From assembly GCF_003334315.1 (NCBI RefSeq), contig NZ_QOWR01000001.1: DNA of 64,000 nt; one strand, given 5' to 3'. How positions within the stretch are numbered: the stretch's first letter is position 1; each line of letters starts with the position of its first letter. Origin of the DNA: Escherichia coli (lineage in GTDB: Bacteria > Pseudomonadota > Gammaproteobacteria > Enterobacterales > Enterobacteriaceae). The notes under the pieces were generated by a model. The model was not told where the DNA came from, did no database searches, and saw only the letters and a list, made by a program, of their open reading frames with translations. The translations under genes and the position numbers were made by a program. Below are positions 2,269 through 44,631 of this stretch, piece by piece.

Positions 2269-4590
2269 ATGATGAATGATTCGTTCTGCCGCATTATTGC
2301 GGGTGAAATTCAGGCGCGCCCGGAACAGGTTGACGCTGCCGTTCGCCTGCTTGACGAAGGGAATACCGTGCCGTTTATCGCACGTTATCGTAAGGAAATC
2401 ACCGGCGGTCTGGATGACACGCAGCTGCGTAATCTGGAAACGCGTCTGAGCTATCTGCGCGAGCTGGAAGAGAGACGTCAGGCGATCCTCAAGTCCATTT
2501 CCGAGCAAGGCAAACTCACCGATGATCTGGCGAAGGCCATCAACGCCACCCTAAGCAAAACCGAACTCGAAGACCTCTACCTGCCCTACAAACCTAAACG
2601 CCGCACCCGCGGGCAAATCGCCATTGAAGCAGGGCTTGAGCCGTTGGCTGACCTGCTGTGGAGCGATCCGTCACACACGCCAGAAGTCGCCGCTGCACAA
2701 TATGTTGATGCCGATAAAGGCGTGGCAGATACCAAAGCCGCGCTGGATGGCGCGCGCTATATCCTGATGGAACGGTTTGCCGAAGATGCCGCGCTGCTGG
2801 CGAAAGTGCGTGATTATCTGTGGAAGAACGCGCATTTGGTTTCTACGGTGGTGAGCGGTAAAGAAGAGGAAGGGGCGAAATTCCGCGACTATTTCGATCA
2901 TCACGAACCGTTGTCCACGGTGCCTTCTCACCGCGCGCTGGCGATGTTCCGTGGGCGTAACGAAGGCGTACTCCAGCTTTCGCTGAATGCCGATCCGCAG
3001 TTCGATGAGCCGCCCAAAGAGAGCTATTGCGAGCAAATCATCATGGATCACCTTGGCCTACGCCTGAACAATGCCCCGGCGGATAGCTGGCGCAAAGGCG
3101 TAGTGAGCTGGACCTGGCGCATCAAGGTGCTGATGCATCTGGAAACCGAACTGATGGGTACCGTGCGCGAACGCGCGGAAGATGAAGCAATCAACGTCTT
3201 TGCCCGTAACCTGCACGATCTGCTGATGGCGGCCCCTGCCGGACTGCGTGCAACGATGGGCCTCGATCCGGGTCTGCGTACTGGGGTAAAAGTGGCGGTG
3301 GTCGATGCCACTGGCAAACTGGTAGCGACCGATACCATTTACCCGCACACCGGACAAGCCGCAAAAGCAGCGATGACCGTTGCTGCCTTGTGTGAAAAAC
3401 ATAACGTTGAACTGGTGGCGATCGGCAACGGTACAGCTTCCCGCGAAACTGAACGTTTCTATCTCGACGTGCAGAAGCAGTTCCCGAAAGTGACCGCACA
3501 GAAAGTGATCGTCAGCGAAGCTGGCGCGTCGGTTTACTCAGCTTCCGAGCTGGCAGCGCAGGAGTTCCCGGATCTCGACGTTTCGCTGCGTGGCGCGGTG
3601 TCTATCGCCCGCCGTTTGCAGGATCCGCTGGCGGAGCTGGTGAAAATCGATCCGAAATCTATCGGCGTAGGTCAGTATCAGCATGACGTCAGCCAGACGC
3701 AACTGGCCCGCAAACTGGACGCAGTAGTAGAAGACTGCGTAAACGCCGTTGGCGTCGATCTCAACACTGCTTCTGTTCCGCTGTTAACCCGCGTGGCGGG
3801 CCTGACGCGCATGATGGCGCAAAACATCGTGGCCTGGCGCGATGAGAACGGCCAGTTCCAGAACCGTCAGCAACTGCTGAAAGTCAGCCGTCTGGGGCCG
3901 AAAGCCTTCGAGCAGTGCGCGGGCTTCTTGCGCATTAACCACGGTGATAACCCGCTGGATGCTTCTACCGTCCACCCGGAAGCCTATCCGGTGGTGGAAC
4001 GCATTCTGGCAGCAACACAGCAGGCACTGAAAGATCTGATGGGTAACAGCAGCGAACTGCGTAACCTGAAAGCGTCTGACTTTACTGATGAAAAATTCGG
4101 TGTGCCGACAGTAACTGACATCATCAAAGAGCTGGAAAAACCGGGTCGCGATCCGCGTCCGGAATTTAAAACCGCTCAGTTTGCCGATGGCGTCGAGACA
4201 ATGAACGACCTGCAACCGGGTATGATCCTCGAAGGTGCGGTGACCAACGTCACCAACTTTGGCGCGTTTGTCGATATCGGCGTGCATCAGGACGGCCTGG
4301 TTCACATCTCTTCATTGTCGAACAAGTTTGTGGAAGATCCGCATACCGTGGTGAAAGCGGGCGACATTGTGAAGGTGAAAGTGCTGGAAGTGGATCTTCA
4401 GCGTAAACGTATCGCCCTGACTATGCGTCTGGACGAGCAGCCTGGCGAAACCAACGCCCGTCGCGGCGGCGGTAATGAACGCCCGCAAAACAACCGCCCG
4501 GCAGCCAAACCACGCGGTCGTGAAGCGCAGCCTGCCGGTAATAGCGCGATGATGGATGCGCTGGCGGCGGCAATGGGCAAAAAACGTTAA
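2269..4590 (+). CDS. tex: Tex-like RNA-binding protein (S1 domain, YqgF/HhH)
   Basis: 773-aa ORF; Tex/YhgF sequence with C-terminal S1-like segment ([21 protein letters not shown]...). Confidence 0.93.
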
Positions 4591-42594: not shown

Positions 42595-43590
42595 TTAAAT
42601 AGATCCGCCCGGTGACAAGGTGAAACCTAAATCTAACATTTTCGGTGTCACAGATTCGCCACGAATACGCGCCAGCAGGCGTTCAGCGCCAATACTGCCC
42701 ATCCGCTCACGCGGCGTCAGTACGCTCGCCAACCGTGGTTCCATCACCTGACCAATGTCATGACCGTGGAAACCGGCAATCGCCATATCGTCAGGAACTT
42801 TTAACCCCAGACGCTGGCATTCAAACGCCGCGCCGACCGCCAGGTCATCATTAGTACAGAACACGCCATCCAGCTGCGGATATTCCCGCCTCGCCTGGCG
42901 AATCAGTTCAATACCGGAAGAGTAAGAAGAAGATTGCTCAACCATCACGCTATATGGCACCAGGTCTGCATCCAGCATCGCCTGTTCGTATCCCTTCTGT
43001 TTGATGATAGTACGTTCGTCGAGACGTGCGCCGAGATAAGCAATGTGGCGATGCCCGCGAGCAATAATGGCGGTGGTCATCTGGCGTGCCGCTTCAAAGT
43101 TATCAAAACCGACGGCAATATCGAGGCACGGCGACTTGCTGTCCATCAACTCCACCACCGGGATCCCCGCCACTTCAATCATCTTTAAGGTGCGTGGCGT
43201 GTGAGTACGTTCGGTGAGGATCAGTCCGTCGATATTCCATGAGAGCATGGATTCGAGACGTTCTTGCTCCATTTCCGGTTTATAACCGTAGTGAGCCAGC
43301 ATGGTCTGATAACCGTGCGCGTCGGTGACGCTTTCGATTCCGCGTAATACTTCCGCGAAAACCTGGTTGGTGAGAGAAGGTAACAGGACGCCAATCGCCC
43401 GGCTGGTGGCGTTAGAGAGGATATCGGGCGCACGATTGGGAATATAGCCCAGTTCATCAAGAGCCGCGGCAATCTTGCCGCGTAGAGCGACGGAAACCTG
43501 CTCCGGGTTGCGTAAAAAACGGCTGACCGTCATTTTGGTCACGCCTACACGGTCAGCCACATCCTGAAGTACGGGTCTTTTCTTTTTCAT
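42595..43590 (-). CDS. gntR: LacI-family gluconate repressor GntR
   Basis: 331-aa ORF MKKKRPVLQDVADRVGVTKMTVSRFLRNP... (LacI HTH). Confidence 0.95.
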   Translation of the reverse strand: MKKKRPVLQDVADRVGVTKMTVSRFLRNPEQVSVALRGKIAAALDELGYIPNRAPDILSNATSRAIGVLLPSLTNQVFAEVLRGIESVTDAHGYQTMLAHYGYKPEMEQERLESMLSWNIDGLILTERTHTPRTLKMIEVAGIPVVELMDSKSPCLDIAVGFDNFEAARQMTTAIIARGHRHIAYLGARLDERTIIKQKGYEQAMLDADLVPYSVMVEQSSSYSSGIELIRQARREYPQLDGVFCTNDDLAVGAAFECQRLGLKVPDDMAIAGFHGHDIGQVMEPRLASVLTPRERMGSIGAERLLARIRGESVTPKMLDLGFTLSPGGSI

Positions 43591-43813
43591 CGTCCTGAAG
43601 GTACAAAAGAGATAGATTCTCTTAGTTTAACACGGACACATCAGAACCTTCCCGGGGAAAACAGTGCTTGTTTACAATTATTAGATATACACTAAATCAA
43701 TTGCATCGCATTGTGCTAACGACGCGGCAAAACCCCGGAAGCGTACATCAGCACGCGACCGGAGCGAGCGAGGAAGCCTGCAAAAAGGCAGGCTTCAAAT
43801 ATGCCGTTGAGTT

Positions 43814-44509
43814 TTAAACCGGCGGCAGATCGAACAGTAACACTTCGCTGTCGCTATCCGCATGGATGGAGATTGCCTGCTCATCCCAGATTGCCAGACC
43901 ATCGCTGGTCGAGGCTTTCACGCCGTTAATGGTGACATTGCCTTTCACCACCTGGATCCAGACGCGGCGTTCAGCGGCAATCTGATGCACCGACTGCTCA
44001 TCTTTCAGCAACGCCCAGCGGTACAGTTCCATATCCTGATGCACTTTCAATGAACCATCTCGCGCATCCGGCGAGAGCACCAGCTGTTTGCCCTGTACGG
44101 CATCGAAGCGACGCTGTTCATAACGCGGCGTAATACCGTTTTCTTCAGGCATGATCCAGATCTGATACAGATGCAGACGCTCGGTGCTGCTTGGGTTGTA
44201 CTCTGAGTGACGAATACCCGTACCAGCACTCATAATCTGGAACTCACCCGCCGGAACCTGCTCTTTATTGCCCATGCTGTCCTGATGCTCAACAGTACCT
44301 TCCAGCACGTAGGTCAAAATTTCCATATCTTTATGCGGGTGAGTGCCGAAGCCCTGCCCTGCTTCAATCACGTCGTCGTTAATCACGCGCAGCGCGGAGA
44401 AGCCCATAAAGTTCGGATCGTAATAGTTGGCAAAAGAGAAAGTATGCCAGGAGTCCAGCCAGCCATGATTTGCATGACCACGTTCATTTGCTTTGCGTAA
44501 GTAGATCAT
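43814..44509 (-). CDS. yhhW: Pirin-like cupin (quercetin 2,3-dioxygenase) YhhW
   Basis: 231-aa ORF MIYLRKANERGHANHGWLDSWHTFSF... Confidence 0.92.
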   Translation of the reverse strand: MIYLRKANERGHANHGWLDSWHTFSFANYYDPNFMGFSALRVINDDVIEAGQGFGTHPHKDMEILTYVLEGTVEHQDSMGNKEQVPAGEFQIMSAGTGIRHSEYNPSSTERLHLYQIWIMPEENGITPRYEQRRFDAVQGKQLVLSPDARDGSLKVHQDMELYRWALLKDEQSVHQIAAERRVWIQVVKGNVTINGVKASTSDGLAIWDEQAISIHADSDSEVLLFDLPPV

Positions 44510-44571
44510 TTGTATTCGCCCCCTGAATGATTTCGATGGGCTTAGTGTGGACCCGATCTGCCTGGGATGAT

Positions 44572-44625
44572 AGAGGGTGAAAATTGACCCCTCTGTTCAA
44601 AAAAATTGAACTATTCGAGGGGCCA
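44572..44625 (-). terminator. Nested inverted repeats just 3' of yhhX
   Basis: AGAGGGT/ACCCCTC and CCCCTC/GAGGGG arms sharing the CCCCTC segment, loop TTCAAAAAAATTGAA. Confidence 0.45.
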
Positions 44626-44631
44626 TCAAAC

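Follow-up and report, generated by a model that had tools for sequence, protein, structure and literature searches.

The stretch of DNA analysed here (the window) comprises 64,000 nucleotides of an Escherichia coli contig (NZ_QOWR01000001.1). In this window the genes yhhX and yhhW follow each other on the minus strand, both with 100% identity to their K-12 counterparts, and are separated by a gap of 122 nt. A 351-nt query around the site described below was 100% identical to K-12/MG1655 and was found in 5425 of the 5426 complete E. coli genomes; coordinates in NC_000913.3 are obtained by adding 3535136 to the window coordinates. From yhhX towards yhhW, the following features are discussed:

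44632-45669, minus strand: yhhX
44632-44634, minus strand: stop codon (TAA) of yhhX; the hairpin begins 7 nt downstream
44617-44625, minus strand: 5' arm of the hairpin, UGGCCCCUC, free to vary in sequence and co-varying with the 3' arm
44597-44609, no strand assigned: YhaJ recognition site, a LysR-type T-N11-A box in the form TCA-N7-TGA, based on published mutations and the motif
44585-44593, minus strand: 3' arm of the hairpin, GAGGGGUCA, the arm common to two inverted repeats
44575-44587, minus strand: candidate YhaJ activation site, TCAATTTTCACCC, near-invariant in 80 species
44567-44577, minus strand: CCCTCTATCAT, the 3' arm of the second stem plus TATCAT, with a putative -35 region (CTATCA)
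44531-44552, minus strand: second conserved block, GTCCACACTAAGCCCATCGAAA in K-12, with a putative -10 (CACACT, 44544-44549) and a putative start near A44537
44507-44509, minus strand: start codon of yhhW
43814-44509, minus strand: yhhW

Inverted repeats and conservation of the intergenic region

An earlier note, made from the sequence alone, had described two inverted repeats with a common arm and a palindromic loop in this gap, and all three repeats were recovered: TGACCCCTC / GAGGGGCCA at 44585-44593 and 44617-44625 (9 nt, 89%), which forms the outer stem; AGAGGG / CCCTCT at 44572-44577 and 44589-44594, the second stem; and GTTCAA / TTGAAC at 44595-44600 and 44606-44611, the inner helix. 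The outer and second stems are mutually exclusive, as the note had held, since bases 44589-44593 take part in both, and the loop does contain a palindrome (GTTCAA/TTGAAC), as it had also observed.

A scan with YhhX, using one genome per species, provided 80 loci from about 20 enterobacterial genera, and yhhW lies downstream of yhhX at a distance of 121-124 nt in 79 of these. One of the loci (L065, CACSKA010000004.1) is from an assembly titled Chryseobacterium sp. 18061, although it carries an enterobacterial yhhX-yhhW locus with 87% YhhX identity that is nearly identical to the locus of 'Citrobacter sp. 18056' (L061); the assembly is probably mislabelled or contaminated. Three zones can be distinguished in the orthologue alignment: the core, TTTTGAACAGAGGAGTCAATTTTCACCCTCTAT(G/C)AT, is near-invariant, the next 13 nt or so vary, and a second conserved block, GTCCACACTTACTCCATCGAAA, follows. 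Almost all columns of the 41-nt core (44606-44566) show a major-allele frequency of 0.95 or more, compared to a mean of 0.63 for 60 fourfold-degenerate sites of yhhW, none of which reaches 0.95. This difference points to strong selection on the core at the level of the sequence itself.

A permissive Rfam search of positions 43500-46500 returned RyhB and chance-level matches only, leaving the intergenic region empty, and a scan for promoters and terminators flagged no site in the intergenic region, including no sigma-70-like promoter. Two small open reading frames were considered and rejected: one initiated at ATT and open into yhhW in K-12 is broken by indels in other species, and one starting at the ATG of TATGATC lacks this ATG in Escherichia.

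Some observations were made on the neighbouring genes. The known gene for RyhB (Rfam RF00057, 83 bits) is located at 45787-45851 on the minus strand, between yhhX and yhhY, with a terminator-like site at 45812-45794 and a promoter-like site at 45916-45887; the ryhB promoter is strong and Fur-controlled. Downstream of yhhW, a terminator-like hairpin, TGACCAAAATGACGGTCA, followed by GCCGTTTTTT, is found at 43524-43541 on the minus strand, with a tail to about 43514. It lies within gntR (42595-43590), 76 nt into the reading frame, and coincides with a strong 'internal' Term-seq 3' end at genome position 3578650 (window 43514) among those listed by Adams et al. 2021, and may represent premature termination within gntR. 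The same listings also contain antisense 3' ends in yhhW, on the plus strand at window positions 43863 and 43921 (genome 3578999 and 3579057).

The YhaJ operator and a proposed layout of the yhhW promoter

The palindromic loop, TTCAAAAAAATTGAA, contains the sequence TCA-N7-TGA at 44597-44609. On the minus strand this box, TCAATTTTTTTGA, runs from 44609 to 44597, with its first T at 100 nt from the A of the yhhW ATG. The GTTCAA/TTGAAC palindrome spans 44595-44611 and doubles as the inner helix of the hairpin described below. The extended pattern TCA-N7-TGAAC has a single match in the 64-kb window, which is this box.

Induction of a yhhW::gfp fusion by hydroquinone is abolished by deletion of yhaJ, and a fragment from upstream of yhhW is shifted by purified YhaJ in EMSA (Palevsky et al. 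2016, PMC5031710). The same study identified a 16-nt motif common to five YhaJ targets, containing a LysR-type T-N11-A box of the form TCA-N7-TGA, and found that induction of yhhW is reduced by the mutations C99T and T91C/T92C, numbered upstream of the ATG (PMC5031710). In the window, C99 maps to 44608, the C of TCA, and T91/T92 map to 44600/44601, which are Ts of the spacer. This check of the mutation numbering also holds for yhaK and ybiJ, and for yqjF if an offset of 3 nt in the start codon is taken into account. In addition, YhaJ ChIP-seq peaks are present at yhhW in EHEC as well as in UPEC, and a DNase I footprint on the promoter of yhhW includes the motif (Connolly et al. 2019, PMC6765310). 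Taken together, the mutations, EMSA, ChIP-seq and footprint identify the palindromic loop as a known transcription-factor operator: it is the YhaJ recognition site of the yhhW promoter, known since 2016. The inner helix, consisting of the arms of the YhaJ box, is conserved in sequence with zero compensatory changes, as is expected of a protein site. For this interval the earlier note had left the choice between simple termination, structural switching and protein binding; protein binding is thus confirmed for the palindromic loop, while the switch finds no support in the second stem.

The sequence TCAATTTT occurs twice, at 44602-44609 and again 22 bp downstream at 44580-44587, so that the first 8 nt of TCAATTTTCACCC repeat the left half of the recognition site. 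To see the same relation at other YhaJ promoters, the left half of the box (9 nt) was compared with the sequence 22 bp downstream for yhhW, yqjF, yhaK and ybiJ, which gave 25 matches out of 36; the remaining 31 offsets in the range 13-44 gave only 4-17 matches at the same four promoters. The ygiD promoter was excluded from this comparison, because the published C50T numbering could not be reconciled with the current start codon. In the LysR canon the recognition site is found near -65 and activation sites near -44 and -33, e.g. for BenM/CatM and CbnR (PMC5031710, PMC11739112), and according to a 2025 paper the recognition and activation sites of YhaJ promoters are not definitively assigned. 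On the basis of the repeated half-site we propose TCAATTTTCACCC as a candidate YhaJ activation site, located two helical turns from the recognition site.

In each of the four YhaJ promoters a hexamer resembling a -10 sequence (TATGAT, TACCAT, GATACT or CACACT) is positioned 46-52 nt beyond the box. Somewhat further downstream, CCATCGA is found 57-63 nt after the box in both yhhW and yqjF, and ACATCGA at 56-62 nt in ybiJ. These C(C/A)ATCGA sites lie within window positions 44531-44552 (minus strand), at 4470-4490 of the yqjF locus (L085) and upstream of ybiJ (L087), and a similar sequence, CTTACTCCGCCGAAC, is present about 38 nt before the ATG of ygiD; the element may represent a transcription start and first transcribed nucleotides that the regulon has in common. 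A transcription start of yhhW was looked for in data from Ettwiller 2016, Yan 2018 and Kim 2012, and none was found. As predicted from spacing only, we consider it likely that the -35 lies at about 44568-44573, the -10 at about 44544-44549 and the start near 44537. If transcription starts at A44537, the recognition site would be centred at about -66, with the activation site at about -44, CTATCA at -35 and a variable spacer of 18 nt; the positions of the two sites would correspond to canonical LysR geometry. This layout also fits the conserved/variable/conserved pattern of the orthologue alignment. In a less likely alternative TATCAT is the -10 and transcription starts near 44560, which moves the box to about -43, but the activator tetramer would then sit over the core promoter, and the second conserved block would be left unexplained. 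Other promoter types were rejected by eye: for sigma-32 and sigma-E promoters the spacing from TTGAAC is too long by 4 and 2 nt, respectively, a MerR-type long-spacer promoter would have a spacer of 22 bp, and a marbox does not fit.

The yhhW promoter shares with canonical LysR promoters a strong T-N11-A dyad, a weaker half-symmetric site two turns downstream and a poor putative -35. It differs in that 41 consecutive positions are conserved across about 20 genera; the distances to the start, moreover, are those of the predicted layout. Its closest counterparts are the promoters of yqjF, yhaK and ybiJ, each with a TCA-N7-TGA box, a repeat of the left half 22 bp on and a -10-like hexamer at 46-52 nt. 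Among the YhaJ promoters, however, yhhW is alone in having its box as the loop of an RNA hairpin to which the 3' end of the upstream gene contributes, and the flanking sequences AGAGGAG and CACCCTCT are specific to yhhW.

A covarying RNA hairpin at the end of yhhX

Folding of the minus strand, the check suggested by the earlier note, yielded a stable hairpin. The combined outer stem and inner helix, GGCCCCUCgaauaGUUCAAuuuuuUUGAACaGAGGGGUC, has a folding energy of -20.4 kcal/mol on the transcribed minus strand (z = -3.5, with none of 200 shuffles as good), while the plus strand gives an unremarkable -17.0 kcal/mol (z = -1.7). The outer-stem hairpin is 41 nt long, with energies of about -18 to -20.6 kcal/mol and a pair probability of 0.99 in K-12, and encloses a 23-nt loop region that contains the inner helix. 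At the DNA level its 3' arm, GAGGGGUCA, is the spacer from the recognition site to the candidate activation site.

The outer stem is kept in about 74 of the 80 species, and per-species folds range from -12 to -20 kcal/mol in 70 of the 80. Between the stop codon of yhhX and the box the sequence varies, yet most species retain complementarity to the conserved right arm. The arm pairs found are CCCCTC/GAGGGG (Escherichia), CTCCTC/GAGGAG (most genera), CGCCTC/GAGGCG (Buttiauxella) and CCTCTC/GAGAGG (one Escherichia lineage), as well as CTGTAC/GTACAG in two species in which the right half of the box is itself altered. In six of the 80 species (L039, L043, L051, L067, L068 and L081) the 5' arm is gone and the promoter block is retained, suggesting that the hairpin is dispensable. 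One of these, Phytobacter ursingii (L039, 3536-3580), lacks the usual 5' arm; immediately ahead of the YhaJ box it has a different small hairpin, CUUCCgcuauuGGAAG, for which the T-rich spacer of the box would be the tail and which may be an independent replacement of the terminal hairpin.

A sequence-only MAFFT alignment (A2) gave no excess covariation in the main hairpin, since the covariation is hidden there by register shifts of the internal loop between Escherichia and Buttiauxella. In the structure-aware alignment, pairing is found in 94% of the cells; UA, GC and CG all occur at one pair, and CG and UA at another, and 11 double-change cells were counted, a number equalled by none of 500 shuffles. 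Such a covariance-model realignment leans towards structure, but the compensatory pairs can also be read off the raw sequences, and RNAalifold independently predicted the same helix. The non-Watson-Crick cells on the yhhX sense strand comprise 58 G.U versus 4 A.C, although many of the 58 descend from one shared ancestral state and independent events are fewer. This asymmetry indicates a helix formed in RNA on that strand and not a palindrome in the DNA. We conclude that the outer stem is a conserved, covarying RNA hairpin that closes the yhhX transcript. The comparison of the orthologues shows that 44617-44625 has evolved to pair with the fixed promoter sequence GAGGGGUCA.

The position of the hairpin resembles that of a terminator: a stable, G+C-rich stem, maintained by compensatory change, starts 7 nt downstream of the yhhX stop codon, and the tail AAUUUUCA comes after it. 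This tail contains only four Us, a short run supplied by the candidate activation site TCAATTTTCACCC, and AAUUUUC directly follows the stem in all species. The hairpin differs from an ordinary intrinsic terminator in its 23-nt loop region and short U-run; judged by a short loop and at least five Us in the 8 nt directly after the stem it does not qualify, and the simple terminator scan did not flag it. For the minus strand, the two Term-seq listings of Adams et al. 2021 have no 3' end between 3578650 and 3580958 in genome coordinates; the missing end may reflect low expression of yhhX or incomplete listings. Termination, the first option of the earlier note, is therefore plausible for the conserved, covarying outer stem but unproven, given the weak U-tract and the lack of a listed end.

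A parallel is provided by yqjF, where the terminator of the upstream gene yqjK abuts the YhaJ box rather than enclosing it as in yhhW. The hairpin of this terminator, GGCCGGAgccatTCCGGCC, stops 7 nt short of the box (4387-4425 of the same yqjF locus; NC_000913.3 3250386-3250424), and its U-tract is as poor as that of the yhhX hairpin. Among the 3' ends listed by Adams et al. 2021 is one for yqjK, 153 nt upstream of yqjF and 3 nt before the box, which implies that such arrangements can give a mapped RNA 3' end in spite of a poor U-tract. The most economical reading of the yhhX hairpin is a leaky terminator or a 3'-protective element that insulates the inducible yhhW promoter. yhhW is regulated independently, being up-regulated with a logFC of 5.8 in EHEC on radish sprouts. 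One paper has suggested that ryhB is co-transcribed with yhhX by read-through, and such read-through would be a reason for an insulator at this position.

Alternatively, the hairpin could be neither terminator nor insulator, but a 3' stabiliser, or the neutral result of selection to keep the Shine-Dalgarno-like AGAGGAG hidden in read-through RNA, with termination elsewhere, e.g. by Rho inside yhhW. The weak U-tract that escapes the terminator scan, the lack of an end in the Term-seq listings and the absence of the hairpin from 6 of the 80 species fit this explanation, which we nevertheless regard as rather unlikely in view of the AAUUUUC that follows the stem in every species, and of the listed yqjK 3' end so close to the yqjF box with an equally poor U-tract.

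Less likely still, the outer repeat might act at the DNA level, as a site for a second dimeric regulator or as a cruciform around the YhaJ box. Its right arm is almost invariant, as in a protein site, and the Term-seq listings contain no transcript end here. The left arm, however, is not conserved as sequence, and different lineages carry different complementary pairs (CCCCTC/GAGGGG, CTCCTC/GAGGAG, CGCCTC/GAGGCG and CCTCTC/GAGAGG). The one-sided changes, 58 G.U against 4 A.C on the yhhX sense strand, argue in the same direction, as in duplex symmetry, and on the opposite strand, each of these G.U pairs would become an A.C mismatch. Finally, in the LysR model the tetramer contacts DNA downstream, and not upstream, of the recognition site.

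The second stem on its own reaches -9.4 kcal/mol in K-12, about 9-11 kcal/mol weaker than the outer-stem hairpin, and has a pair probability of 0.004 (0.4% of the ensemble). Its energy is -6.5 kcal/mol in most species and -1.8 kcal/mol in 12 of the 80. Among 76 distinct sequences it has no compensatory changes at all; pair 52-64 is unpaired in 69 of them, and pair 49-67 is broken and uncompensated in 14. A perfect 6-nt inverted repeat of this kind is expected about once by chance per 111-nt region, by a rough estimate, and its arms sit in the near-invariant 41-nt promoter block. We regard the second stem (AGAGGG/CCCTCT) as a by-product of this conserved block and not as part of a switch. A structural switch, in which the shared arm would pair upstream (terminator) or downstream (anti-terminator) and so set read-through from yhhX into yhhW, and in which a ribosome halted 7 nt before the 5' arm might determine the choice, could appeal to the bases 44589-44593 present in both stems, to the -9.4 kcal/mol in K-12 and to the nearby yhhX stop codon, but is very improbable given the pair probabilities (0.004 versus 0.99), the weak energies in other species, the broken and uncompensated pairs, the retention of the block as sequence even in species without the first hairpin, the absence of an Rfam family matching the intergenic region, the YhaJ-dependent promoter that drives yhhW itself, and the transcription of both arms of the first stem ahead of the 3' arm of the second. 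The arrangement resembles attenuators and riboswitch platforms in that two helices use one common arm; unlike these, it has no sensor, no comparable stability or conservation of the alternative helix, and no Rfam match.

A promoter probably superimposed on a terminal hairpin

In our view, the upstream half of the yhhW promoter, which YhaJ activates, and the terminal hairpin of yhhX quite likely coincide in this interval. As the published experiments show, YhaJ recognises 44597-44609 and turns on yhhW in response to hydroquinone-type compounds. A second YhaJ dimer would contact TCAATTTTCACCC (44575-44587), two helical turns downstream, and with a start near 44537 the whole element would lie upstream of the yhhW mRNA. 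The YhaJ box at the same time forms the loop of the hairpin, and the T-run of the candidate activation site its tail. The hairpin would end or protect the yhhX transcript and shield the yhhW promoter from upstream read-through, and in its evolution the fixed promoter sequence would have been co-opted to provide the 3' arm and the tail.

Since the operator supplies the loop, 3' arm and U-run of the yhhX hairpin, occupancy by YhaJ and transcription from upstream could interact, and the latter may include read-through from the Fur/RyhB promoter into yhhX. That this overlap is functional and more than compaction, with YhaJ occupancy and upstream transcription influencing each other, seems improbable to us. 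If it were, bound YhaJ could, for example, be a roadblock aiding the weak terminator or, alternatively, read-through under iron limitation could displace YhaJ and alter the induction of yhhW; in both cases the response to quinones and flavonoids would become linked to iron status.

The YhaJ site was already known, and the additions made here are the covarying terminal hairpin and the candidate activation site. The latter, together with the predicted core-promoter layout, would be common to four YhaJ promoters and could guide the engineering of yqjF-type DNT/TNT sensors. The hairpin provides an example of dual coding, in which a fixed promoter sequence is also the arm and tail of the RNA hairpin of the upstream gene, and in which the free arm tracks the fixed promoter arm by compensatory change across about 20 genera.
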